Part shown: in pieces, positions 4,429-21,814 of the stretch | Layout: each line of letters opens with the position of its first letter | How positions within the stretch are numbered: position 1 is the stretch's first letter | Virus record (IMG/VR): IMGVR_UViG_3300033156_000312 | Coordinates: 1 to 64,000 of that record | Origin: a virus | Strand: one strand, 5' to 3' | DNA length: 64,000 bases | The notes under the pieces: model-generated | Seen by the model: the letters and a program-made list of their open reading frames with translations, nothing else | Told to the model about the DNA's origin: nothing | Databases searched by the model: none | Translations under genes and position numbers: made by a program

Positions 4429-4725
4429 ATGAATAAAAATGAATTAGAAGCAATAGCCGAAGAAATAACAAAAGCAACTAAATACTTACAAAATGCCAGT
4501 AAAATGATAGAAAAATTGCCTGATGATGACCACAAAAAACTTTTATCTTCTTATATAACAAGTGTCGGATTATCTAATTTTTATTTAGGATTAGGGATGG
4601 CTTCAATATTTAGCACATTATCTGATAATTCTTCTTCTACAATATCAACTAAAAATTTCAATGAATTAATGAAACGATTGATGAGGGAAAAGGAAAATGA
4701 TAGTGAAAGTGAGACAGATAAATAA
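4429..4725 (+). CDS. Hypothetical protein
   Basis: ORF with AGGAG RBS. Confidence 0.55.
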   Translation: MNKNELEAIAEEITKATKYLQNASKMIEKLPDDDHKKLLSSYITSVGLSNFYLGLGMASIFSTLSDNSSSTISTKNFNELMKRLMREKENDSESETDK

Positions 4726-4921
4726 TAGAGAACAACAAGATAGAGAATTAGGAAAAGCTTTGAAAATTTTAAAAAGAAAGCTTGCAAAAGAAGGGGTATT
4801 TCAAGTTTTGAAACAAAAACGATATTATATTAAGCCAAGTGAAATAAAACATAAAAAAGCTATGGATTTAAGACATAAAAAGAAATTGACGGAGCGAAAT
4901 CGTGGAAAAAAGAAAAGATAA
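4697..4921 (+). CDS. rpsU: Phage-encoded 30S ribosomal protein bS21
   Basis: KALKILKRKLAKEGVFQVLKQKRYYIKPSE matches the bS21 ALR.FKRK....G...E...R.YYEKPS signature. Confidence 0.85.
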   Translation: MIVKVRQINNREQQDRELGKALKILKRKLAKEGVFQVLKQKRYYIKPSEIKHKKAMDLRHKKKLTERNRGKKKR

Positions 4922-5738
4922 AGTTATAATACTGGATTATGGGATATTTATGTTTAGAAGTATTTATTCTTGGAGAAATAATAAACAAATTCCTCCAGAA
5001 TACACGTGTTTAAATATGATGACTTCTTGTTTGAAAAAAATCGGTGTAGAACCAATGGATACTATTATTGTAGCATGTGATTATGGAAGAAGTTGGAGAA
5101 AAGATGTAGATAAACAATATAAAGCTGATAGAAAAGAAGCCAGAGAACGACAAACAGACATAAATTGGGAAGATATGTTCAAACGATTTAACGAATTAGA
5201 AAAGAAAATTCAAATTGGAACTGATTGGCATGTAGTAAAGGAATGGTCTTTCGAGGCAGATGACCTTATGGCAGTTGCTTGTCGCTATTATAAAGATAAA
5301 GAAGTAATATTGGTAACGTTTGATGCCGATGTTGAGCAACTGAGTATTTATGATAATGTGAAAATCTTTTCTCCACTAAAAAAATATAAAGGCAAAAAAG
5401 GCGGATATAAACATGTGAAAGAACCTTTGAAAGTATTAGCTCAAAAAATAGAGAAAGAAACGGCTGATAATTTAACTAATCCCATATTAAGCAAAGAGGA
5501 CTATGAAAAGAGAGAACAAATAGTTTCTTTGCTGACACTTCCAGAATTTGTAGAAAATAGAATTAAAGATATTTACGATAATTTGACTGAAAAAGAATAT
5601 ATAAATGACAATGCAATTCCATATTCTACTATGCGAAATAAAATAGCTACTCTTTATAATAATAAAAAGGATATTGTGAACTATGAAGATTCCATAAATT
5701 ATAAACCAAAGAAAAGAAGAAAGAAATGCAAAAAATAA
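4902..5738 (+). CDS. 5'-3' exonuclease / flap endonuclease (T4 RNase H-like)
   Basis: IILD, D..RSWRK...YKADR, FEADD and DAD..QL motifs. Confidence 0.85.
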   Translation: MEKRKDKVIILDYGIFMFRSIYSWRNNKQIPPEYTCLNMMTSCLKKIGVEPMDTIIVACDYGRSWRKDVDKQYKADRKEARERQTDINWEDMFKRFNELEKKIQIGTDWHVVKEWSFEADDLMAVACRYYKDKEVILVTFDADVEQLSIYDNVKIFSPLKKYKGKKGGYKHVKEPLKVLAQKIEKETADNLTNPILSKEDYEKREQIVSLLTLPEFVENRIKDIYDNLTEKEYINDNAIPYSTMRNKIATLYNNKKDIVNYEDSINYKPKKRRKKCKK

Positions 5739-5781
5739 AATGCCCAAAATGAAAATCCTGAGCTTATAAAGGAGAAATAAT

Positions 5782-5898
5782 ATGAAAGGAAACGTTGGGT
5801 CAAGAAATAAACATTCGAGGAAAAATAAAAGGCATCGTTTCAAAAAAAGACGAAGATTAATGAGACATCGCCGTAAATCAAGAGGTGGAAGACAATAG
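5782..5898 (+). CDS. 38-aa Arg/Lys/His-rich peptide (not in ORF track)
   Basis: MKGNVGSRNKHSRKNKRHRFKKRRRLMRHRRKSRGGRQ*; AAGGAG RBS. Confidence 0.6.
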   Translation: MKGNVGSRNKHSRKNKRHRFKKRRRLMRHRRKSRGGRQ

Positions 5899-6070
5899 TG
5901 GATAAGAGCAAACTTGAACATATAAAAATTTATATCAATCGTAAAGGTAAAAGAAAACTTACGAAGGCATTAATAGTCAAAGAAAATGCTAAAACAGTGT
6001 GGGTTGTATTAAAAGATGGAAATATTATTAAAAGACACAAAAAACGAGATATAAAAGGAGGGAAATAATA

Positions 6071-6451
6071 ATGACAGAAGTTAGAAAAGATGGAAATATT
6101 CCAGAAGAAGTTAAAAATCAGATTATGCCAGATAGCAAGAAAAGAGTAATCACAGAAAAATTATCTCAACGTTATCTCGATGATTTAGAGAAAATAAACA
6201 GAGAAAAACAACAGCTTCTAAATCAAATGTTAAGCATTTCTGTAAGAATAGTTGACATGCAGAAACAACAGCAAACTATTCGAGAAAAAATACAGAATAA
6301 TACTCAAAAACAACAAAATACTCTTGAACACGCTTTTAAAAAGATGAAACTTGGTAAGAAAAAAGAATATCGTTGGCAATTTAGGCAAGATAGTTTTGTG
6401 GGAGTATTAAATCCCACAAAGAAGAAAGCTCCAGAAAATCCGAAAAAATAA
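6071..6451 (+). CDS. Hypothetical coiled-coil protein
   Basis: Gln-rich helical ORF with GGAGG RBS. Confidence 0.65.
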   Translation: MTEVRKDGNIPEEVKNQIMPDSKKRVITEKLSQRYLDDLEKINREKQQLLNQMLSISVRIVDMQKQQQTIREKIQNNTQKQQNTLEHAFKKMKLGKKKEYRWQFRQDSFVGVLNPTKKKAPENPKK

Positions 6452-6463
6452 GGAGGAAAAACA

Positions 6464-6994
6464 ATGAAATTCAAGGTAGCCTTTTATAAGAATGGGAGCT
6501 ATCTAATTAAGATGGTTCTTGATGAAGGTGAAGAAGTTTGGGCAAAAACTACAAAAAAAGTTCATGATTATGCTAAAAAGAACTTTACAGAGAATGAAGA
6601 GTGTGATTACGATTATGAAGAAAAGAATGGTGAATACTTCATAAATCGTATTTTGAAAAAAGGTTCTGGCACTACAAAGAAATCTTCTAAAACAGAAAAC
6701 AGAAAGAAATATTGTGAATGTGGAGCTGAAATAAAGAATACAAAGTATGATAAATGTTACACTTGCAATCAGAAAAGCGGAAAAACTGACAGCAGTGGGA
6801 AACCTAATTATGGTGCAGGTGCACCTTATGGAAGCTTACTCCCAGATGAAGCAGAAAGAAGAAACAAATTAGCAACACTTTCTTCCGTCTGTGAAGCTGT
6901 GCAAGTTATGACAGGTCAAGTGCAAGACGCAGACACACTTGCCGATATGATTTTAGTGATTTATGATAAATTATATGACAAATTATTCAGATAA
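6464..6994 (+). CDS. Hypothetical protein with Zn ribbon (possible ssDNA-binding protein)
   Basis: Strong AGGAGG RBS; beta-rich N-terminus; CEC...CYTC; function is inference. Confidence 0.45.
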   Translation: MKFKVAFYKNGSYLIKMVLDEGEEVWAKTTKKVHDYAKKNFTENEECDYDYEEKNGEYFINRILKKGSGTTKKSSKTENRKKYCECGAEIKNTKYDKCYTCNQKSGKTDSSGKPNYGAGAPYGSLLPDEAERRNKLATLSSVCEAVQVMTGQVQDADTLADMILVIYDKLYDKLFR

Positions 6995-7013
6995 TTTGAA
7001 AGAAGGTGTAAAT

Positions 7014-7598
7014 ATGTCGAAGAAAATAAAACATAAAAAGAACCCTGCTCACAGAGGAAAAGAACAAAAGATAGATATAGAACAGATATTGCTCAAAAAT
7101 CGTCAGTTATTTTTATTTGGTGCGATAGATGAAAAAATGGCATACAATGTAACTCAACGAATGATAGCTCTTGCCAGAATTAGCTCAGAACCTATTGTGC
7201 TATACATTAATTCGTCTGGCGGTTGTGTAGATGATGGATTTGCGATAATTGATTGTATGAAAGGAGTTAATGTTCCTGTCATCACGTTTATAGTAGGAAA
7301 CGCTTGTTCAATGGCAGGATTAGTTGCAATAGCAGGGGATAAGAGAGTAATAACGGAACATTCAGTGATAATGTTTCACGATATGCAAGCAGGTATTATA
7401 GACTATGCAACAAAAATAGAAGATAGAGCAGAATTTTATAAAAGAGAACAGAAAAAATTGTTTGATTTTATTCGAAAATATACAAACCTATCAGAAAAAG
7501 AAATCCAAAAAGCTATTCATGGAGAACTATGGTTATATCCTCAAGAATGTATTAAAAAAGGTATAACTGATATGATTGCTGGCGATAAGGAGAAATAA
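7014..7598 (+). CDS. clpP: ClpP-family (S14) serine protease
   Basis: LYINSSGG, GNACSMAG (catalytic Ser), IMFH (His); start moved to MSKK after GAAGGTG. Confidence 0.88.
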   Translation: MSKKIKHKKNPAHRGKEQKIDIEQILLKNRQLFLFGAIDEKMAYNVTQRMIALARISSEPIVLYINSSGGCVDDGFAIIDCMKGVNVPVITFIVGNACSMAGLVAIAGDKRVITEHSVIMFHDMQAGIIDYATKIEDRAEFYKREQKKLFDFIRKYTNLSEKEIQKAIHGELWLYPQECIKKGITDMIAGDKEK

Positions 7599-7863
7599 AA
7601 TGATAAGAAATAAAACTCATATTTTTAGGATAATGACACTATTGTTTAAGGTTTGGGTAAGAAATCCTAATTTAAGATTTTGTCAATTGATACAAAACTG
7701 TTTTAGAAGTAGTTGGGCCAACAAAGATGAAAAAATTTATTACGGACAAGGGAAAGATATTTATTACGAAGAAGATAAAGAATTAGAACGTAGATTGAGA
7801 GAAGTTTATTTGAGAGGAGATAGTAATGGGAACACTAATAAGAATACTAAAAGCAAGTTTTAA
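7576..7863 (+). CDS. Hypothetical phage protein
   Basis: W...P.LRFCQL...DIYY.ED motif. Confidence 0.5.
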   Translation: MLAIRRNKMIRNKTHIFRIMTLLFKVWVRNPNLRFCQLIQNCFRSSWANKDEKIYYGQGKDIYYEEDKELERRLREVYLRGDSNGNTNKNTKSKF

Positions 7864-8563
7864 ACCATTATTGATTGTATTATTAGTTTTCAACTTGATA
7901 GCTATTTATAATTTGCTTGAAACCCTTGCAATATTTCAACAACAAATAAATCTAAAAGAGGAAATATTACTTCAAGAAATTCAATGTTTGAGAAAAGAAA
8001 TTAAAACCGTAGATATACCCGAAATTGAAAAATTGAAAAAAGCAAATGTATTAATAGAAAATGTAACTATAAAACGTTGTGGGTCGGGGACACATATCAA
8101 AATAGATAAAAAAAGTTATATTTTGACTTGTGCTCATTTAATAAAAGAGAATAATAATATAATTAACGCTAAATTAGATAATGGAGATACGCATCCATTA
8201 CAATTATTAAAAAAGAATAAAGAATTAGATTTAGCTTTATTTAAAATTTGGGCAGTGGGGGATTTGCCTTATTTAGAAATTAGTGATGAAGAACCGAAAG
8301 AAGGAAGCGAAGTAACTGTAATAGGAAATCCCAACGCTATTGTTGATGTTGTAACAGATGGAATAATATCACATATAGACGATAAAGGATATACTATTAC
8401 AAATACAATATTTTTTGGAAGTAGTGGGGGTTGTGTTATATACAAAAATCGCATCATTGGAGTAGTTACACAATTTCGTATTTTCTTTAATCCTCCTGTA
8501 ATAGCCAATTATGGTTATGCTATAAAATTAAGTATAATTCAAGAATTTTTAAAAGGACTATAA
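7826..8563 (+). CDS. Membrane-anchored trypsin-like (S1C/HtrA-like) serine protease, no PDZ
   Basis: N-terminal hydrophobic segment; TCAH, DLAL and GSSGG catalytic triad. Confidence 0.85.
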   Translation: MGTLIRILKASFKPLLIVLLVFNLIAIYNLLETLAIFQQQINLKEEILLQEIQCLRKEIKTVDIPEIEKLKKANVLIENVTIKRCGSGTHIKIDKKSYILTCAHLIKENNNIINAKLDNGDTHPLQLLKKNKELDLALFKIWAVGDLPYLEISDEEPKEGSEVTVIGNPNAIVDVVTDGIISHIDDKGYTITNTIFFGSSGGCVIYKNRIIGVVTQFRIFFNPPVIANYGYAIKLSIIQEFLKGL

Positions 8564-8564
8564 A

Positions 8565-8708
8565 ATGAGAGACCCAAAATTACATTCTCGTTACATAGAT
8601 GGTAGAACATTAAAAGCTTATTACTGCATAGAACCTAATTGTAATAACGATTTTATTTGTAAATTTTGCGGAAAATCGCAAATTAAAAAGAAAGGTGATG
8701 ACAAATGA
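8565..8708 (+). pseudogene. N-terminal remnant of a Zn-finger HNH endonuclease
   Basis: MRDPKLHSRYIDGRTLKAYYCIEPNC... resembles NYIDGRCLKKHYCKDC of the 38335 HNH; no nuclease domain follows. Confidence 0.5.
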
Positions 8709-9490
8709 AAAATCTAATGAAATACCTTGCTCTGATTACTTTAGCAATTGCCTTAATTTGTCAGCAAAATCCGAATAATTCTCAAGATGTGTTTGTTACT
8801 GATGAGAAGACATTACAATCTAAATTTGATACAAAACGGTTTGATTCCTTATTTACTTCGGAAACTCTCAAATTGAGACAAGGCATGGTTGCTGTAAAAG
8901 TTGGTAAAAGAGGTGGTGCAGGAGTAATAGTTGAGATAGATGATAAGTATTTATATGTGCTTACCGCTAAACATATTTTATTACAAAAAGGACAACTTGC
9001 GATAGAAGTTTTAGATAAAAACAGTAAATCAACTATTATCAAAAATATTTCAAAAACAAATACAGTAAAACATAGAAAAGTAGATTTGGGATTAATTAAA
9101 GTGCCAAGACCTGAAGGAGATTTCGGGACAATTAAATTAGCTGAGAGACCTGTTTTAATTGGTGAAAAAATACGTGTGGTCGGACATCCCTGTAATATTT
9201 ATTATGCTATTACAGAGGGTATAGTTTCAAGTTATAAGAAAAGAAAATTTCAAGGAATTAAAGAAGAATACATAGTTGTATCTGCTCCTTCTTTTAGTGG
9301 AGGGTCAGGAGGAGCTTTAATAAATAGCAAAGGACAATTAGCAGGTATTGTGGTCGGGATAATGTATATAGGACGAAATGCGATGGATTATAAAAACACT
9401 GTATATGTGTTTCATATCGTGTATGTAACAAAATTAGAATTTATTAAAGATTTCTTGTATAAAAATGGAATTATAATGAGGATTCAATGA
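8705..9490 (+). CDS. Exported or anchored trypsin-like serine protease, no PDZ
   Basis: Signal-like N-terminus; TAKH, DLGL and GGSGG. Confidence 0.85.
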   Translation: MKNLMKYLALITLAIALICQQNPNNSQDVFVTDEKTLQSKFDTKRFDSLFTSETLKLRQGMVAVKVGKRGGAGVIVEIDDKYLYVLTAKHILLQKGQLAIEVLDKNSKSTIIKNISKTNTVKHRKVDLGLIKVPRPEGDFGTIKLAERPVLIGEKIRVVGHPCNIYYAITEGIVSSYKKRKFQGIKEEYIVVSAPSFSGGSGGALINSKGQLAGIVVGIMYIGRNAMDYKNTVYVFHIVYVTKLEFIKDFLYKNGIIMRIQ

Positions 9491-10134
9491 TGATAAGCAT
9501 AGTCGTGTTCCTAATGGGATTGCTGTTAGCCATTATCATTCATGAAGTAGGGCACACACTCAGTGCTCTGCTTCTGGGCGTAGAAGTGGAAGTGTTTAGT
9601 ATAGGATTTGGAAAAGTGATTTGGAAGAAAAAATGGAGAAATATACAATGGCAAGTAGCTTTAATTCCTTTAGGAGGTTATACAAAATTAGCTGGAGAAG
9701 ATAATAAATCTCCTCACGGATTTTTGTCTCAACCTTATTGGAAGAAAGTCATTATTTTAATATCAGGGGTATTAATGAATTTGTTACTTGCTTGTGTGAT
9801 ATATCTTATTCATTACGAAAATATTTGGACAGGTATGCGAATAGATTGGAACATATTGACTTGGATATTCACACATCAAAGAGATTTAATATATACATTT
9901 GTATATGTAGCACAACCAAATCTTTTACTTTTACAAATTAGTTTAATAAATTTCGGGTTAGCTTTATTTAATATATTGCCTCTGCCTTCTTTGGATGGTG
10001 GCATGTTATGGGCAGTGTTATTAGAAAATAAAGTTGCAGATTTTGAAACCTTTTTGAAAAAATTTAGTTATTATGGATTTTTATTTCTATTATTCTTACA
10101 ATTTATTTTAATCTATTGGGTCTATTGGGGATAA
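9487..10134 (+). CDS. Site-2 intramembrane metalloprotease (M50, RseP-like), no PDZ
   Basis: HEVGH, FSIGFG, IPLGGY, G..MNLL and FNILPLPSLDGG. Confidence 0.9.
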   Translation: MMISIVVFLMGLLLAIIIHEVGHTLSALLLGVEVEVFSIGFGKVIWKKKWRNIQWQVALIPLGGYTKLAGEDNKSPHGFLSQPYWKKVIILISGVLMNLLLACVIYLIHYENIWTGMRIDWNILTWIFTHQRDLIYTFVYVAQPNLLLLQISLINFGLALFNILPLPSLDGGMLWAVLLENKVADFETFLKKFSYYGFLFLLFLQFILIYWVYWG

Positions 10135-10179
10135 AAAATGTTAAAGTGGTTCTTTAGTCCTATAACAGGAGAAAATAAA

Positions 10180-11718
10180 TTGCGTTACTTTTTTACGGCA
10201 GATTACCACTTAGGCCACGCTAACATCATAAAATATTGCAATAGACCTTTCAAAAGCGTGCATCATATGAATAAAGAGATAATCAGGAGACACAATGAAA
10301 GAGTAAAAGAAGATGATATAGTTTTTATGATTGGAGATTTTTGTGTATCAGGAGATACTTATATAGATACTCCTCAAGGACGCAAGCAAATTCGCATTTT
10401 AAAAAAAGGGGATAAAGTATATTCGGTTAATTTAAAAAATAAACAGTTAGAGATTTCTAATATAAATAAAGTTTGGAGAACTAAAAGTAAAATACGTTAT
10501 CATCTGATATTAGAAAATAATATTACGCTTAAAGTTACTTCAGAACATCCTTTCGCTGTTAGTAGAAATAAGGTTTTAAAGTGGGTAAAAGCTAAAAATT
10601 TAAAATCAGGAGACGTTCTATTTAGAAAGAAAGATTCATTACCACGAATATTGAAATTAAAAAAACAGGAAAAAAACTATATGATAGGATATATTTTGGG
10701 ATATAGTTATGGAGATGGATACTTTAATAAGTATTCTGTAGTTATAGATAGTAAAGATAAAGAAGGACTACAAAGAATAGTAAATTATATTCAAAAATTA
10801 TATAACAGAAAATTAAAAATACGACTAACAAAACTTGTATATTATCGTTTAAGAATACCCTATGATATATATAATTCTTTGAAAAATCGGGATTTAACTT
10901 TCAAAAAAATCAATCGAAATATACCAAAATGGTATTATGGTTTTTTAGCAGGATTTTATGATGCAGAAGGTAATTGCCAGTATCAAAATCATAATTGGTA
11001 TATTAGATTAGGGTCTACTGATAAAAAATTATTTAATTTTGTTGTTTTGTTATTAAAATATTTTAATTTATCTATTATTACAAGAAAATGCAAACAATAC
11101 AAACATTATAAAGTTTTTTATGAGATAAAATTATTAACTAAAGAAACTTTTAATTTTTTCTTACAAATTAGACCTGCAATTAAAAGAAAATATCCAGATT
11201 TAAAAATATTATCTAATGGAACTAAAATTAAACAAATAATTAAAGTTAAACATAAATATAACAAATATTTTAAAAATTATAATCTAACTGTTGAACCAAA
11301 CAACAATTATTTTATTAAAGGAATTTTAGTTCATAATTGTTTCAAAGGTGGAAAAGAAGGCGGGAAAATTTCAGCGTTGAAATGGGAAAAAAGATTAAAT
11401 GGCAAAATAATATATATCAAAGGAAATCATGATAAAAGGAATTCTGTCAAAACGATAATAGAACGTCTTGTAATAAAATATGAAAATAAAAGAATTAATT
11501 TAGTGCATAGGCCCGAATTTGCAGATGTAAATTATGAAATTAATTTCACTGGACACGTGCATAAAAACTGGAAAATTGAAAGAATAAGAAAAGGATTTCA
11601 ATTTACGAACTGTATTAACGTAGGTATAGATGTATGGGATTTTTATCCTGTAACTTATGAAGAGATTATGAAAAGATATAGTCATTGGAAAAAGAACTTG
11701 AAATTAAAATATGAATAA
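10180..11718 (+). CDS. Calcineurin-like metallophosphoesterase containing an intein
   Basis: TADYHLGH, GDF, GNHD and GHVH; likely TTG start after GGAGA. Confidence 0.85.
   Translation: MRYFFTADYHLGHANIIKYCNRPFKSVHHMNKEIIRRHNERVKEDDIVFMIGDFCVSGDTYIDTPQGRKQIRILKKGDKVYSVNLKNKQLEISNINKVWRTKSKIRYHLILENNITLKVTSEHPFAVSRNKVLKWVKAKNLKSGDVLFRKKDSLPRILKLKKQEKNYMIGYILGYSYGDGYFNKYSVVIDSKDKEGLQRIVNYIQKLYNRKLKIRLTKLVYYRLRIPYDIYNSLKNRDLTFKKINRNIPKWYYGFLAGFYDAEGNCQYQNHNWYIRLGSTDKKLFNFVVLLLKYFNLSIITRKCKQYKHYKVFYEIKLLTKETFNFFLQIRPAIKRKYPDLKILSNGTKIKQIIKVKHKYNKYFKNYNLTVEPNNNYFIKGILVHNCFKGGKEGGKISALKWEKRLNGKIIYIKGNHDKRNSVKTIIERLVIKYENKRINLVHRPEFADVNYEINFTGHVHKNWKIERIRKGFQFTNCINVGIDVWDFYPVTYEEIMKRYSHWKKNLKLKYE
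10342..11337 (+). mobile_element. Intein with LAGLIDADG homing endonuclease (332 aa)
   Basis: Starts CVSGDT after GDF; block B VTSEHPF; LGYSYGDG and LAGFYDAEG; ends ILVHN with Cys at +1. Confidence 0.92.
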
Positions 11719-12151
11719 AATACGATTTTTTAAAAGAAAAGTAAAAGAATTAGCTTTACTTACAAACATAGAAGAAGATATAGAATTAAGACGTGATAAT
11801 AGATTAGGAGGATATAGTGCTTGTATATGTTTATATTTATATTGCGATACACATGAACCTGTATATTTAATGAGATATAATGAACGAAAGATTAAAGATA
11901 TGACTAAAGCAGAAATTTTGAATATGATATTTCATGAACTTGGGCATATTAAATTTAAACATGAATATGATAACAAGAAGTCTATTGAACAAATGGAATA
12001 TGAAGCAGAAAAATTTGCTATTGAAAATATACGGCGACATTATCCTCAATACTTTCAAAAAGTATACTGTAATTTGAAAAAATACAAAACACATGATAGA
12101 GCAGTATATCGAAAAGCGTTTGGTAAATTAATTGATGAGATTAAGATATGA
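11711..12151 (+). CDS. HExxH zincin metallopeptidase (ImmA/IrrE- or M48-like)
   Basis: FHELGH followed by EYEAEKFA. Confidence 0.65.
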   Translation: MNKIRFFKRKVKELALLTNIEEDIELRRDNRLGGYSACICLYLYCDTHEPVYLMRYNERKIKDMTKAEILNMIFHELGHIKFKHEYDNKKSIEQMEYEAEKFAIENIRRHYPQYFQKVYCNLKKYKTHDRAVYRKAFGKLIDEIKI

Positions 12152-12262
12152 AAAATCTAATAGCAAGATATATTCTGTGAAAATTTTGTCAATTAGAATG
12201 GGATTATTTACGATTTATAGTGATAAGAAAAGATTATAAATCTTATATATATTGGAGATAAC

Positions 12263-13489
12263 ATGAAACAACGAAAAGTTAAAATACCATTTTTGGTGTA
12301 TCTTTTCTTCATTTTAATTTATGCCAATCAAGGATTATCATCTTTGCCTTCACAGGCAATTTATTACCTGACTCGTGAAACCTGGAAACTATCAGCTACT
12401 ATGCTTGGAGGATTAGCGTTTATAACGTCTTTTGCATGGTATATTAAACCTTTATTTGGTATAGCTATTGATTGTTATCCTATTTCTAATTATCGAGCTA
12501 AATATTATCTCTGGATAAATTATCTATTTTTAGTGTTTACAGGGATATATATTATTATATTTGGTTTCAATTTGGTTAGTTTAATTATAATTATGTTTCT
12601 TATGAATATAGCCATTGGATTTAATGATGTGGCCAACGACGCACAAATGGTAAAGCTCGAACAAAAACATAATCTCAAAGGTAAAATACAAGCGATACAA
12701 TGGATTTCATTAGGAGTTGCAGGATTAATTGTTTCTTTAGGTGGTGCGTGGATAGCCAAAACATTTCCAGAGCCACTCAATTATAAAATAGCTTATAGCA
12801 TTTGGCTATTATTGCCTCTTGGAACTTTATTTTATCTCGCAAAAGGATATAAAGAAAAGAAAGTAACAGAACGCAAAAGTTTTACTCAACTCAAAGAAAA
12901 TTTTAAGAAATTGAAAAACAAAGCATTTCTAATAGGAATATTATTCATAGCGTTTTTAAGATTCAGTCCTTCATTCGGAACAGCATTGATGATTAAAATG
13001 CGAGAGACTATGGGGATAGATAAAATGTTTTTGGGGTATATGGGAGCAACTGGCACAGTGTTAGGATTAATAGGATATGCAATATATTATTGGAAAGCAT
13101 ATAAATTCCCAATGAAAAAATTGTTATATTTTACTATTATATTTTCGGCGTTAGCGAATTTATGTTATTTATATATTCCAAATAAATGGTTTATATTTGG
13201 ATATAGCATTGCTTTCGGAGCCTTTGATGGAGTTTGTTTTTTGACAGTATTAGCGTTTATGGCAAAAATCGTTCCCGTAGGGGCAGAGGGATTATTTTAT
13301 GCTTTAATAACATCTATTAATAACTTTGCAGGACGATTAGGAGGAATGATGGGTTGCATGATTTATGATAAAATGGGATATGAAACAAATGTAATTGTAG
13401 CTTCAATTACCACATTAATGTGTATAATATTTGTGCCTTTATTGCATTTTAAAGGAGAACGAAAGGACGTCAAAGAAAAGATATTGTAA
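12263..13489 (+). CDS. MFS transporter, folate-biopterin (BT1)-like
   Basis: About 12 hydrophobic helices; W.IKPLFG..ID..PI..YR, DVANDA.MV and P.GAEG..YA. Confidence 0.8.
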   Translation: MKQRKVKIPFLVYLFFILIYANQGLSSLPSQAIYYLTRETWKLSATMLGGLAFITSFAWYIKPLFGIAIDCYPISNYRAKYYLWINYLFLVFTGIYIIIFGFNLVSLIIIMFLMNIAIGFNDVANDAQMVKLEQKHNLKGKIQAIQWISLGVAGLIVSLGGAWIAKTFPEPLNYKIAYSIWLLLPLGTLFYLAKGYKEKKVTERKSFTQLKENFKKLKNKAFLIGILFIAFLRFSPSFGTALMIKMRETMGIDKMFLGYMGATGTVLGLIGYAIYYWKAYKFPMKKLLYFTIIFSALANLCYLYIPNKWFIFGYSIAFGAFDGVCFLTVLAFMAKIVPVGAEGLFYALITSINNFAGRLGGMMGCMIYDKMGYETNVIVASITTLMCIIFVPLLHFKGERKDVKEKIL

Positions 13490-13546
13490 AGAAAGCGATT
13501 GATAATTATATTGAATGGTTTAGAGAGAAAATTAAGGAACATAAAA

Positions 13547-13828
13547 ATGATAGCTAAGATGTTATTTTCGATTAGTGGCACACTCTGGGCAATAGAAATG
13601 TTGCCACAGATATATAAAACATATAAAATAAAATCTGTGCAAGATATTTCTCTGTTTTTTCCTTCACTTTGTTTTATATCATTTTGTTGTTTTTTAACAG
13701 CAAGTTTTATGACACAAAATTGGATTTTAGTAAAGACACATATTTTCCCATTTGTATGTAACACTGTGTTTCTAATACAAACTTTAATTTATAGGAGAAA
13801 TAATGATGAAACTAATAGACTATATTAA
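13547..13828 (+). CDS. PQ-loop (SemiSWEET-like) membrane protein
   Basis: LPQIYKTYKIKSVQDIS; three hydrophobic segments. Confidence 0.75.
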   Translation: MIAKMLFSISGTLWAIEMLPQIYKTYKIKSVQDISLFFPSLCFISFCCFLTASFMTQNWILVKTHIFPFVCNTVFLIQTLIYRRNNDETNRLY

Positions 13829-13994
13829 AGAATATTATAGCGGACATATTGATAAAAAAGAAATGAAAGAAGTTTTGAAAAAAGCAGGGAAAGATTTGAT
13901 TCAAGAAATTCATAAAGAAACTAATGGTAGTAAAGAGTTAGTTACCAGAATCCTTGCTATTGTGAAAAACTTTTTTGGAGGTATTAAGTCATGA
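13803..13994 (+). CDS. Hypothetical protein
   Basis: ORF with AGGAG RBS. Confidence 0.5.
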   Translation: MMKLIDYIKEYYSGHIDKKEMKEVLKKAGKDLIQEIHKETNGSKELVTRILAIVKNFFGGIKS

Positions 13995-14506
13995 GAAAAG
14001 CAAGAAATAAAAATAGCTTGTTTAGAAAAATACGAAGATACGACAAAAAATATACAATTCGCACAAAGATTCGCAGAATATATAGGAGAATAATGAATAC
14101 TATTACTAAAACTCCTTTTTATATTAGACGTTTCATACAACGAGGCAAAAGAGGATATGCTAATTGCGATACTTGGAATTTTTGTTACTATTTGTCAGAT
14201 GTGATAGGAAAAGGAACAAGACATCTTAAAAGACAACTAAATGGACATCCAGACAGTTTAACAGAAGGTCAATGGGTTGATACTCTAAATAGTATTGCTA
14301 ACACTTTTGATATTGCTCGAAATATAATTAATGGAGATTTATATTTAATAGAAGATGAGGATGACCGAAAAAAATGGGCAAAAAATTTAAAGAAAATTAA
14401 TAAAAAATATAAAGATAATGCAAGATGTATGACAGATACAGAAATTAGGGAATTCAATAGAGGTTGGCGGTTGTTTAAAGAATATTTCTTTAGCTTATGG
14501 GATTAG
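13991..14506 (+). CDS. Conserved phage hypothetical protein
   Basis: QR.KRGY...D.W...YL...G..LFKEYF.SLWD pattern. Confidence 0.6.
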   Translation: MRKARNKNSLFRKIRRYDKKYTIRTKIRRIYRRIMNTITKTPFYIRRFIQRGKRGYANCDTWNFCYYLSDVIGKGTRHLKRQLNGHPDSLTEGQWVDTLNSIANTFDIARNIINGDLYLIEDEDDRKKWAKNLKKINKKYKDNARCMTDTEIREFNRGWRLFKEYFFSLWD

Positions 14507-19023: not shown

Positions 19024-20913
19024 ATGCAATATAAACAAATAATTCTATCAAAGCTTATTGACTATTTAAAGTATAAAAAAATCAAATTGAGTCGAGGGCA
19101 TATAAAGACTTTTTCTTGTCCTTTTTGTGGCAAGACAGCAACATTATTACCAAACTCTCATTATGTAAATTGTTTTTTTTGTCGTCCTAAAGAAAATTTT
19201 GGAGAATATTTTACAGTTATAGATATTGCAAGAAAATTGGATAAACCAGATGCTTCAGATGAAGAAATCTTACAATATCTTAAAGATATATTAAACATTA
19301 AAGTAATGACAAAACAAGATGAAGTAAAAGTAGAAGATATATTAAAGAAATATCAAGAATGGGGGTTCGATTTAGTTCCAATAGTTACTAATGGAAAAAT
19401 TCCCGCAGAAAAAGAATGGACAAAGAAAACCCATAAAGATATAAATGAATGGATGCGATGGATAAAAGACGGTCTTAACATAGGAGTTAAAACGGGAAAA
19501 GTAAGCAATATTATTGTAGTGGATATAGACCAAAAACCAATACCAAATGAAATCAAAAATTTATTAAGAGATGATAGCACTTTTATTCAAGAAACAACAA
19601 AGGGCTATCATTTATTTTATAAATATGACTCTGACTTACCAAAAACTCGTATAGATGAAATCAAAATAGATATAGAGAATGATGGTGGGCAAGTTGTGAT
19701 ATATCCTTCGAGAATTAAAGATAAGGAAAGAAAAATTCAACAATTTGGAAAGATAGCAGAAATGCCCGAAGAATTAAAAGAATATCTAAAGAAACAAATG
19801 ACCGTCCCTCGCAAAACTCAAAGTGAAAAGATAAGTGAAGATATACAAACAGAAGATTTTAATTTAGGGGTATTGGGAGAAGGACAAAGAAATTCATCTT
19901 TAGTAAGAATAGGTGGAATTTTGAGAAAAGAACTTAATAAAAAACAAACCGAGTATACTTTACATATGCTTAATAAAGTTTTATGTAAACGACCTCTCCC
20001 CGTCAAAGAAATGCGAGCTATGATAAATAGCTTAGATAAATATACTCACTTTGATGAAAAAGAGTTGGCTCATAAAGTATTAGAATATTTGAGAGACATA
20101 GAAGAAGCTAATAGAAATGAAATTGCTATGGCAATAGTAGGAACTAATCGAGGAGAGGAAAAAAAGAGAATAGATAAAGCTCTACAATATTTGGTTAAAG
20201 AAAGATATGTATCTAAAATAGGGAGAAGTTATTCCATTCGAAAAAAAGTAGAATGGAAAGAAACTTTGATTAATATAGGAGTTCCGATTGATTTTCAAAT
20301 GCCATATTTTTATGATTTAATGCACTTTCATTTTGGAGATTTAATTATTATCGGGTCAAGAAACGCTACAGGAAAAACTCATATAGCCATGAATATAGTT
20401 AAACAATTAGTTGAACAGAAAATTACTCCTTATTATCTTTCTCTTGAAGGTGGTTCAAGATGGGCAAAAATAGCACTACAACTCGGATTAAAAGAAAGAG
20501 ATTTTAAGTGGGAAGAAACTTCTAATCCTAATAATGTAGAATTAGAACAAAATGCTATTACTATAATTGATTGGTTATGTCCAAAAAGTTATGCAGAAAC
20601 AGATAAAATATTACAAAACTTAAATGATAAAGTGCGTGAAACTAAAGGAATATTAATTGTTTTTGTTCAGTTACGAGATAATAACGAATGGTTAGCTAAA
20701 GATTTAATAAAACAATTCCCTGCTTTTGCTTGTAGATATATTTATGATAATGAAGATAGTGGAGAATATGGCAAATTTAAAATAGACAAATTAAGAGATG
20801 CTAAAATACGTATTAAAAGTTATGAATTACCAGCATATTATAATTGGGAAACTAAAGAACTCATATTAGTTTCAGAATTAGAACAAAAAAAGAAATTAGA
20901 AAATGAAGAATAA
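19024..20913 (+). CDS. Primase: Zn finger, bifunctional Prim-Pol, PriCT and P-loop (helicase-like) domains
   Basis: CPFC/CFFC; NIGVKTG...VVDID, TTKGYHLFY, GGQVVIYPS; EGQRN; GSRNATGKT and IIDW. Confidence 0.82.
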   Translation: MQYKQIILSKLIDYLKYKKIKLSRGHIKTFSCPFCGKTATLLPNSHYVNCFFCRPKENFGEYFTVIDIARKLDKPDASDEEILQYLKDILNIKVMTKQDEVKVEDILKKYQEWGFDLVPIVTNGKIPAEKEWTKKTHKDINEWMRWIKDGLNIGVKTGKVSNIIVVDIDQKPIPNEIKNLLRDDSTFIQETTKGYHLFYKYDSDLPKTRIDEIKIDIENDGGQVVIYPSRIKDKERKIQQFGKIAEMPEELKEYLKKQMTVPRKTQSEKISEDIQTEDFNLGVLGEGQRNSSLVRIGGILRKELNKKQTEYTLHMLNKVLCKRPLPVKEMRAMINSLDKYTHFDEKELAHKVLEYLRDIEEANRNEIAMAIVGTNRGEEKKRIDKALQYLVKERYVSKIGRSYSIRKKVEWKETLINIGVPIDFQMPYFYDLMHFHFGDLIIIGSRNATGKTHIAMNIVKQLVEQKITPYYLSLEGGSRWAKIALQLGLKERDFKWEETSNPNNVELEQNAITIIDWLCPKSYAETDKILQNLNDKVRETKGILIVFVQLRDNNEWLAKDLIKQFPAFACRYIYDNEDSGEYGKFKIDKLRDAKIRIKSYELPAYYNWETKELILVSELEQKKKLENEE

Positions 20914-21814
20914 AAAATTAAATCAATATATAATATCAGCTAAAAAGTTAATCAACATGCCTTATAATCAATTAAATTTAGCTAATTACAAGAAAAAATT
21001 TGTTAATATTTATAAATTAAAAAATATACACTTTATAAATACTTCTTCTAAAAAACCTATTAAATTAATGTCTGGACAATCTAAAAATGCAGGTATTATT
21101 GCTTCTTCAATTCCATCTTCCAAAAGAAATATTTATTTAATAGGTAAGGGGATTTTATTTGATGCAGGAGGATATGATTTAAAATCTTCTGGAAAAATGA
21201 ATAATATGAAATGTGATATGAGCGGAATGGCAATAGCATTTGCTGTATCTTCTTATTTTAAAAATAATAATGTAATCGCTTATTGTCCTGTCGCTACAAA
21301 TTTTATACATAATAACCAAATTACTCCTGGCGATTACATCAAGATAGGAAATAAAACTGTAGAAATAACAAATACAGATGCAGAAGGTAGATTAATTTTA
21401 GCTGAAGCATTAAGTCAACTTACTGTTGAAAAGAATGATATAATTATAACAATAGCTACTTTAACAGGAGTATGTGCTTATGCTATTGGAGAAAAAGCAA
21501 CCGCTTTTATGACTCCAACTAAAGAATTTACTCATAAATACAAACTTGCGAGCAAAAAAGCAAACGAACTTGCTTGGAGACTTCCATTATGGGACTATTT
21601 ACAAAAATCTTTTAATAAAAAAAGAATAACGAATACTTCTAAGGAAAAATGTGGGACTATTATGGGGGGAATGTTCCTAAAACAATTTATTCCAAACCCC
21701 AAAAATTGGATTCATCTCGATATAGCTTATTCGGCTTATGATAACAAAAAAAATAAGGCGACTGGAGAACCTATAATGAGTTTAGTTTACTTTGTTGAGG
21801 AGTTATTGAAATGA
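20903..21814 (+). CDS. M17 leucyl aminopeptidase (catalytic domain only)
   Basis: GKGILFDAGG.DLK, MKCDMSG, NTDAEGRL, ATLTG and HLDIA. Confidence 0.9.
   Translation: MKNKKLNQYIISAKKLINMPYNQLNLANYKKKFVNIYKLKNIHFINTSSKKPIKLMSGQSKNAGIIASSIPSSKRNIYLIGKGILFDAGGYDLKSSGKMNNMKCDMSGMAIAFAVSSYFKNNNVIAYCPVATNFIHNNQITPGDYIKIGNKTVEITNTDAEGRLILAEALSQLTVEKNDIIITIATLTGVCAYAIGEKATAFMTPTKEFTHKYKLASKKANELAWRLPLWDYLQKSFNKKRITNTSKEKCGTIMGGMFLKQFIPNPKNWIHLDIAYSAYDNKKNKATGEPIMSLVYFVEELLK

Follow-up and report, generated by a model that had tools for sequence, protein, structure and literature searches.

In the sigmaE envelope-stress response of Escherichia coli, DegS, then RseP, and then ClpXP act on RseA. Bacterial site-2 proteases (S2Ps) control envelope-stress, iron-uptake, sporulation, and virulence signaling, and it is the PDZ filter that makes this signaling "regulated." Group I S2Ps are defined by PDZ domains located between transmembrane helices 2 and 3 (TMH2 and TMH3); the PDZ tandem of E. 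coli RseP is described as a filter that works by size exclusion and makes RseP dependent on DegS, and impaired PDZ domains as leading to DegS-independent cleavage (PMC7728848). Among phages, the peptide deformylase (PDF) of cyanophages is treated as an auxiliary protein-processing gene (PMC3660681), an ATP-dependent Clp protease is listed among the common structure clusters of huge phages (10.64898/2026.10.24.761521), and a viral "peptidase M50" auxiliary gene that a Patescibacteria genome has in common with its virus is reported from river metagenomes (PMC12993620). The last of these is the one mention of such a gene in the literature searched, which yielded no study characterizing a phage site-2 protease. 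Here we describe a run of protease genes in IMG/VR virus record IMGVR_UViG_3300033156_000312, a linear record of 82,045 bp whose first 64 kb (positions 1 to 64,000, referred to as the window) were analyzed. The run encodes a ClpP-fold serine protease, two membrane-anchored trypsin-like proteases (Tryp1 and Tryp2), and an RseP-type S2P of family M50.

The locus is like the sigmaE cascade of E. coli in that the same three protease families are encoded together, the trypsin-like proteins sharing the anchor and fold of DegS and the M50 protein sharing the core of RseP. Unlike in that cascade, the phage membrane enzymes are without PDZ domains, no RseA-like substrate, RseB, or ClpX was found in the phage, and the three genes are not co-conserved in related phages; the ClpP-like protein also differs from the ClpP of the cascade in having a glutamate at the acid position and in lacking the N-terminal segment. 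The phage resembles the cyanophages with PDF and the jumbo phages with ClpP in carrying non-virion protein-processing genes in the replication or auxiliary part of its genome, and it differs from the sets described for them in having M50 site-2 and anchored HtrA-like proteases. The initial annotation had taken the run to be an ungated copy of the sigmaE cascade. We favor a different reading, to which we assign a probability of about 0.45: the cluster would be composed of two core phage proteases plus accessory genes and would represent a tool set with one protease per compartment rather than a fixed relay.

Four proteases in one packed run

Positions 6963 to 10134 contain six tightly packed open reading frames (ORFs) on the plus strand, four of which encode proteases with intact catalytic residues (Table 1). 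The initial annotation had listed four proteases among five genes; the four proteases are upheld by Pfam matches and catalytic motifs, and the number of genes becomes six. The stop of Tryp2 and the start of M50 overlap by 4 nt. Seven peptidase-like genes were recognized in the genome, including those for an M17 aminopeptidase, a papain-family C1 peptidase, and a weak HExxH peptidase, and when 7 such genes were placed at random among 130 ORFs, 4 fell within six consecutive genes in 682 of 200,000 placements. Clustering of the proteases by chance is unlikely. No PDZ family was reported by Pfam at E ≤ 0.01 for any of the four proteases, in agreement with the earlier statement that the three membrane proteases, Tryp1, Tryp2, and M50, are devoid of this domain.

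The M50 protein contains HEVGH at residues 19 to 23 and NILPLPSLDGG at residues 162 to 172, and H19, E20, H23, N162, P165, D170, and G171, as well as the GFG motif (G40, F41, and G42), are invariant in 26 viral M50 sequences. Hydropathy places hydrophobic helices at residues 1 to 19, 88 to 106, 146 to 164, and 197 to 215, and the AlphaFold2 (AF2) model (predicted local distance difference test [pLDDT] score of 91.8; predicted template modeling [TM] score [pTM] of 0.86) contains a membrane-reentrant beta-hairpin at residues 34 to 68 (strands 34 to 50 and 53 to 68). The best Foldseek matches were RasP (9a6w) and RseP (9j83, 7w6y, and 7w6x), with E values of 4e-9 to 5.5e-7, followed by SpoIVFB and the M. 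jannaschii S2P, and the nearest NCBIfam model was that of RseP (TIGR00054), which matched in two stretches with 99.6 bits versus a cut-off of 147.55. The phage protein thus shares HExxH, NxxPxxxLDG, the GFG beta-hairpin, and four transmembrane helices with RseP (7W6X, 7W6Y, and 9J82/9J83) and Bacillus subtilis RasP (9A6W), and its N-terminal half is 36 to 47% identical to that of cellular RseP. Unlike in RseP and RasP, the PDZ domain or domains between the second and third helices are replaced by just ~35 residues, and almost nothing occupies this position in a shorter viral subgroup.

A search of 5.8 billion proteins with the M50 protein returned four PDZ-less proteins, with lengths of 206 to 219 aa and 44 to 48% identity, followed by PDZ-bearing RseP proteins covering just 39 to 66% of the query. 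When 1.84 billion representatives were searched exhaustively, 20,397 matches were obtained, just 10 of them at E ≤ 1e-30, and the top 150 included ~17 to 20 PDZ-less proteins that matched in a single stretch. Trees built from 113 rows place the 44 that are PDZ-less (26 viral sequences and 18 short representatives) on one side of a branch with a support value of 100 and the 69 that bear PDZ domains on the other, and the split was kept after the PDZ columns were dropped; being unrooted, the trees leave room for a single origin of the PDZ-less proteins but do not establish one. Among 50,697 GenBank phage records, none covered at least 80% of the protein. When one genome from each of 185,579 species was searched, the best 80 matches, from Acidobacteriota, Campylobacterota, and Aquificota, were nearly all to the N-terminal half, mostly residues ~1 to 111, with four rows reaching residues 128 to 174. 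Single-protein scans of viral contigs with M50 or Tryp2 found no relatives; alignment-based scans did find them.

A PDZ-less S2P is expected to cut without a site-1 step, because the PDZ tandem of RseP is a filter and its impairment gives DegS-independent cleavage (PMC7728848). It is possible to build on this expectation and to regard the viral enzymes as an ungated S2P clade, with the PDZ filter deleted from RseP, that is paired with PDZ-less anchored DegS-like proteases. Such a pair would form a constitutive device for membrane-protein demolition or signaling that strips or activates host inner-membrane proteins (anti-sigma factors, receptors, or membrane defense effectors) early in infection, with ClpP clearing the released pieces. 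We consider a device of this kind unlikely.

Both trypsin-like proteins bear a single hydrophobic N-terminal segment in a hydropathy scan, at residues 4 to 22 of Tryp1 and 1 to 19 of Tryp2, with Lys or Arg before each, and basic residues with such a segment are found in 15 of 16 viral trypsin homologues, the one from L026 being below the threshold. Together with a helix in the Tryp1 model, these segments agree with the N-terminal anchors proposed earlier for both proteins, the one of Tryp2 being either a signal or an anchor sequence. The AF2 model of Tryp1 (pLDDT score of 84.1) consists of a long helix at residues 2 to 58, forming anchor and stalk, and a two-barrel protease domain for which the best Foldseek matches were DegS (1soz) and DegS-deltaPDZ (2qf0), then HtrA1 and DegP (E of ~4e-12). 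The catalytic triad H104, D135, and S200 is invariant in 16 trypsin sequences. For both proteins the nearest NCBIfam families were the DegP/DegS/HtrA protease domain families at E values of 1e-12 to 1e-18 (5.6e-15 and 7.7e-15 for Tryp1 against DegP and DegS; 2.2e-18 for Tryp2 against the DegP family), all below the curated cut-offs, with 55 to 66 bits versus cut-offs of >400. Each protein ends directly after the protease domain and has no C-terminal PDZ domain. The orientation expected from the positive-inside rule would place the catalytic domains outside the cytoplasm.

The trypsin-like proteins resemble DegS-deltaPDZ (2QF0, 2R3U, and 3LGI) in their His-Asp-Ser triad and two-barrel fold and DegS in their N-terminal anchor. 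They differ from DegS and HtrA in being naturally PDZ-less, in being just 20 to 28% identical to them, in the long helical stalk after the anchor, and in that their close relatives are metagenomic and viral only. Tryp1 and Tryp2 are 24% identical and group with different relatives, and by this measure they are distant paralogues. The relatives of Tryp2 were 10 PDZ-less metagenomic proteins of 238 to 283 aa, followed by PDZ-bearing HtrA at an E value of 7e-6, and Tryp2 had no match in GenBank phages.

The most likely start codon of the ClpP-like gene, ATG at 7014, is preceded by GAAGG. The protein scores 128.7 bits against PF00574 (cut-off of 20.2), covering profile positions 3 to 179 of 182, and contains the ACSM and MFH motifs. 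S116, H139, and E188 are invariant across nine viral ClpP sequences; the invariant Glu at the acid position is aligned to an Asp of solved ClpPs that we take to be their catalytic acid. The alignment to solved ClpPs runs from about query residue 14 and chain residue 12 to the end of the protein (best E of 1.7e-23), and a Lys-rich N terminus replaces their first ~12 residues. This N-terminal axial segment is the part of ClpP that docks to ClpX or ClpA. In two related records, a second, canonical ClpP is found beside the divergent phage-type ClpP (~105 to 109 bits): in G011 at C1:31864-32403 (279 bits) and in G025 at C1:37219-37764 (230 bits). A protein of 401 aa with BCS1_N and AAA ATPase domains is encoded 0.7 kb downstream of M50 in another relative (L009:11313-12518), and AAA proteins of ~340 to 400 aa whose kind is unclear occur in G001 to G003 and G029; none was found in this record.

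The ClpP-like protein may also be viewed as a capsid (prohead) maturation protease that is encoded away from the virion genes and is functionally unrelated to the neighboring membrane proteases. We judge this view to be rather unlikely, and it is a live rival because the head genes were not recognized. The best PHROG matches of the protein are head maturation proteases (phrog_94 at 4.6e-36, phrog_1684, phrog_2976, and phrog_133), its GenBank phage matches include Gordonia capsid maturation proteases as well as jumbo-phage ClpP-like genes, and its presence in 6 of 7 near-complete relatives is as expected of a core gene. The NCBIfam model of the ClpP-related head maturation protease (NF045542) gives 90.2 bits against a cut-off of 120, but the best model, that of the cellular ClpP subfamily, scores higher at 115 bits against a cut-off of 249, all NCBIfam ClpP models being far below their cut-offs. 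In every relative inspected, moreover, it is the replication arm that contains the gene, with the tail genes on the other strand and recognizable virion genes never beside it, as the earlier claim of a position far from the head genes had it, with the head module itself not recognized. The protein is a bare chain of 194 aa that aligns along whole solved ClpPs with no scaffold or capsid fusion, two ClpP copies are present in G001, G037, G038, and G040 (in tandem in G001), and the 95%-complete G029 has none, all of which argue against a prohead role. PHROGs and Pfam recognized only the tape measure and baseplate- or fiber-like proteins among virion components. In four records scanned for capsid and prohead families (G000 to G003), neither a further prohead protease nor a capsid family of the HK97 type came to light (PF05065 had no match, and PF04586 reached just 13 bits, in G003), a failure that means little because the head module of the family is not recognizable. 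The replication-arm position and the scores make a prohead role less likely, as the initial annotation had concluded, and with the head genes unrecognized they stop short of excluding it.

Table 1. Protease run and other genes discussed in the text. Positions refer to the window; those above 64,000 lie beyond it and refer to the record.
Feature	Position	Strand	Evidence and remarks
g6464, conserved 176-aa protein	6464-6994	+	
ClpP-fold serine protease	7014-7598	+	194 aa from ATG 7014; longest ORF starts at 6963; PF00574 3e-37
Small ORF, not a protease	7600-7863	+	87 aa from ATG 7600 (95 aa from TTG 7576); AAGGAG 8 nt upstream of ATG
Tryp1, membrane-anchored PDZ-less HtrA/DegS-like serine protease	7826-8563	+	PF13365 3.9e-17
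Cys-rich 47-aa ORF between the trypsin genes	8565-8708	+	ORF list; no family found
Tryp2, second divergent PDZ-less HtrA-like serine protease	8705-9490	+	PF13365 3.8e-17; PF00089 6.4e-10
M50, PDZ-less RseP-type site-2 metalloprotease	9487-10134	+	215 aa; PF02163 8.8e-38
Calcineurin-like phosphoesterase with LAGLIDADG intein, not a protease	10138-11718	+	PF14890; PF14528; phrog_547
Small HExxH protein, weak candidate fifth peptidase	11711-12151	+	PF18894 1.3e-4 (22.5 bits; cut-off 23.7); PF06114 8e-4; phrog_87 5e-6
BT1/folate-biopterin-type major facilitator superfamily (MFS) transporter	12263-13489	+	PF03092 9e-25
M17 leucyl-aminopeptidase catalytic domain	20903-21814	+	PF00883 1.2e-64; directly after PrimPol-helicase gene, same arm
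408-aa beta-helix tail-spike-like protein	72478-73704 (L003:10379-11605)	-	Gp53-like_C; DUF1565; Atlas score 0.92
632-aa protein with C-terminal zinc-ribbon motifs and ChaB domain	74004-75902 (L003:11905-13803)	-	PF06150 5e-12
Papain-family C1 cysteine peptidase	79304-80149 (L003:17205-18050)	-	PF00112 7.8e-22; phrog_16701

Distribution of the proteases in related phages

Relatives were gathered with an alignment of PDZ-less M50 proteins, which led to 13 viral loci, and with the BT1 transporter encoded downstream of the run, which led to 37 loci, of which 8 fall on the same contigs; in all, 42 related IMG/VR records were compared. The loci were annotated with Pfam and with local hidden Markov models (HMMs) applied to all ORFs, and the families were searched for over the whole of the 42 records. 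The region beside BT1 is a variable island with mixes of ClpP, trypsin, PDF, M50, M17 aminopeptidase, and the small HExxH protein. Within 10 kb of BT1 in the 37 loci, M50 was found in 18, ClpP in 16, trypsin in 14, and PDF in 20; M50 and trypsin occurred together in 5, trypsin without M50 in 9, and M50 without trypsin in 13. Over the whole records, Trypsin_2 was present in 30 of 42 and in all 7 of those at least 90% complete, ClpP in 25 (6 of the 7), M50 in 26 (1 of the 7), PDF in 23 (5 of the 7), and M17 in 5, one of them weak (2 of the 7, one weak). M50, ClpP, and trypsin were found together in 15 of the 42 records and in none of the 7. The six records in the latter group that are without M50 all keep trypsin, and five of them also keep ClpP. 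Replication genes surround ClpP and trypsin in all of the relatives inspected. Judged by these distributions, the trypsin-like and ClpP-like proteases are core genes of the phage family whose function would be independent of M50, and the PDZ-less M50 is an accessory gene of a viral lineage.

Co-conservation of the tiers, which had been set beforehand as the test of the cascade, largely fails in these near-complete records. A dedicated, ungated relay of the sigmaE type would have an HtrA-like protease shed the outer part of one membrane protein, M50 cut the remaining stub, and ClpP with host ClpX destroy the fragment, the target being a host anti-sigma factor, a receptor, a defense effector, or a phage regulator. 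Each of the three tiers does have a homologue in one packed run with the 4-nt Tryp2/M50 overlap, the trypsins are DegS-like in build and fold, the M50 protein is RseP-like, the same trypsin-to-M50 overlap is seen in L010, with direct adjacency in L004 and L008, and more than a third of the records (the 15 of 42 above) hold all three families. Against such a relay, 14 of the 20 records that have both trypsin and M50 place them 14 to 73 kb from each other, the distance being at most 1.2 kb in the other 6 (this record, G006, G007, G009, G010, and G012). On a BT1 tree of 38 rows, the presence of M50 needs at least 10 changes, close to the value for shuffled labels (mean of 12.5, with 50 of 500 as low), and complete genomes without M50 stand beside M50-bearing ones; G003, for example, is complete and has no M50, and it shares with its close relative G010, which has M50, the order FEN, g6464, trypsin ... 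BT1. The absence of M50 from six of the seven near-complete records, the expectation that a PDZ-less S2P should need no site-1 cut (PMC7728848), and the lack of any recognized candidate substrate or anti-sigma gene beside M50, where the downstream gene varies among relatives and no conserved small membrane partner was found, also weigh against the relay, as does the failure to find an unfoldase in this record. We regard the relay as improbable. What stands of the ungated cascade copy is a homologue of each DegS, RseP, and ClpP tier, the loss of PDZ domains, the DegS-like build, and the 4-nt overlap; co-conservation, proximity, an unfoldase, and a substrate are what it lacks.

M50 is more often coupled to PDF than to a trypsin, the two directly adjoining in 11 of 18 loci, and in these comparisons its coupling to PDF appears more constant than that to any protease. 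This arrangement, together with the proximity of the BT1 transporter, could mean that the set exists mainly for exported and membrane proteins of the phage itself, with the products of a large glycan-synthesis operon and the BT1 transporter as candidates. M50 would then clear signal peptides and small membrane remnants, the HtrA-like proteases would perform quality control outside, and the deformylase of the relatives would mature N termini. RseP is described as eliminating signal peptides and degrading small membrane proteins (PMC8144685 and PMC10470546), which fits such a role. The host, however, already has housekeeping functions of this kind, and M50 is optional in close relatives with the same neighboring genes; a set devoted to the phage's own proteins seems quite improbable to us.

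The four-protease run arises in one subclade, in which M50, here with a second trypsin paralogue, has come to lie beside the core genes; among the 42 records, only this genome has two trypsin matches. Under the favored reading of a loose tool set, the ClpP-fold protease and the anchored, PDZ-less DegS/HtrA-like protease would be the core, and accessory genes would be gained and lost at a variable site of the early or replication arm, those present here being the virus-specific PDZ-less RseP-type S2P and the second, divergent HtrA-like paralogue. All of the proteases would be made together with the replication genes. A single N-terminal helix would hold each HtrA-like enzyme in the cytoplasmic membrane and leave its catalytic domain outside the cytoplasm, where it would cut accessible parts of envelope proteins with no need for activation through a PDZ domain. 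M50, having lost the PDZ size filter, would cleave transmembrane segments (those of single-pass proteins, signal peptides, and leftover stubs) without a prior cut. The ClpP-like enzyme would act within the cytoplasm, either partnered by an unfoldase of the host or on peptides, and the phage M17 aminopeptidase would take peptides down to amino acids. Host and phage proteins would in this way be remodeled or recycled, and a hand-off from an HtrA-like protease to M50 and on to ClpP may take place in this phage without being a conserved or obligatory function.

Several points weigh against the tool set. An intramembrane protease is poorly suited to recycling in bulk, and the cytoplasmic degradative role of the ClpP-like protein is an assumption, because its N-terminal segment is lacking and no unfoldase was found in the record (no match to PF00004 or PF07724 in a record rated 87% complete by CheckV). 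The membrane topology is predicted from AF2 models and a hydropathy scan of a simple kind. The tight packing, with 4-nt overlaps here and in L010, is in keeping with a functional unit, at any rate within this subclade. The family frequencies are biased because M50 or BT1 served to select the 42 records, and absence from the many fragments among them proves little. The records with all three families include G004, G032, and G038, which have terminal repeats and to which CheckV gives a completeness of just 47 to 65%, and the completeness classes are shaky for this reason.

Genome setting, neighboring genes, and host

The record has a G+C content of 25 to 36% and is organized in two arms, the first on the plus strand to ~43.6 kb and the second on the minus strand. 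The plus-strand arm encodes a PrimPol-helicase, a family B DNA polymerase, a bacterial-type RecA, a 5'-3' exonuclease (FEN), an SMC-like ATPase, and the M17 aminopeptidase; the genes recognized in the minus-strand arm are those for the tape-measure protein and baseplate- or fiber-like proteins. No tRNA genes were found. The 408-aa protein encoded beside the supposed portal gene was considered as a capsid protein and set aside, as it is beta-helix tail-spike-like instead. No portal family was detected in the 632-aa protein. A scan of positions 4500 to 14500 for promoters and terminators gave counts not above those in shuffled sequences (61 versus 60.5 and 4 versus 2.6, respectively).

Within the protease run, the 87-aa ORF matches no Pfam family and has a weak match to phrog_8499 (7e-4); its one relative in the related loci is located elsewhere in L008. 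The 47-aa ORF is possibly a gene remnant. An iterated local HMM pulled it in with the HNH-endonuclease-like ORFs of the phage, the pairwise BLASTP match being weak (E of 0.027), and an origin from a homing endonuclease is a weak lead. Upstream of the run, g6464 is a gene that many relatives have just before ClpP or trypsin. Its product contains a Cys-x-Cys...Cys-x-x-Cys cluster, and its N terminus weakly resembles an OB (oligonucleotide/oligosaccharide-binding) fold, with TM scores of just 0.3 to 0.36 against Atlas structures; the protein may be a DNA-binding replication protein. A role for g6464 as a ClpP adaptor was considered and found to be unsupported, the Atlas matches being viral hypothetical proteins with a weak OB-fold-like N terminus.

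Downstream of the run, the calcineurin-like phosphoesterase of the relatives is intein-less and 175 to 191 aa long, and a related insert seems to be carried by the 5'-3' exonuclease gene of L007 (positions 4797 to 6647; 616 aa). Homologues of the small HExxH protein occur in L005, L007, L026, and G002. Of the genes in the island, that of the BT1 transporter is conserved best; 229 homologues were found, with identities of up to 83%. The M17 gene is found just after M50 in L012 and L053. PDF was not found in this phage.

The DNA of the protease region had no match among the 50,697 GenBank phage records, nor did a candidate terminase protein match GenBank phages. The relatives form a family of uncultured, low-G+C tailed phages of roughly 85 to 110 kb. 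One BT1 homologue lies on a 101,973-bp NCBI contig labeled Promethearchaeota; an archaeal host was considered and rejected because RecA and the 5'-3' exonuclease are of bacterial type, PDF is present in relatives, and strong AAGGAG sites precede genes. These same features point to a bacterium as the host, and the contig is probably a misbinned phage of this family.

Implications for the phage family

The gene order of one genome suggested a cascade; once genomes are compared, core and accessory genes prove to be mixed, which corrects an attractive overreading. No prior paper characterizing a phage S2P was found in the literature searched. A virus-specific branch of S2Ps without the filter would be a natural experiment in deregulated intramembrane proteolysis; the phages that harbor it also universally have an anchored DegS-like protease without PDZ domains. 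Such a branch could provide phages with a new means of seizing control of the host envelope or of dismantling it.

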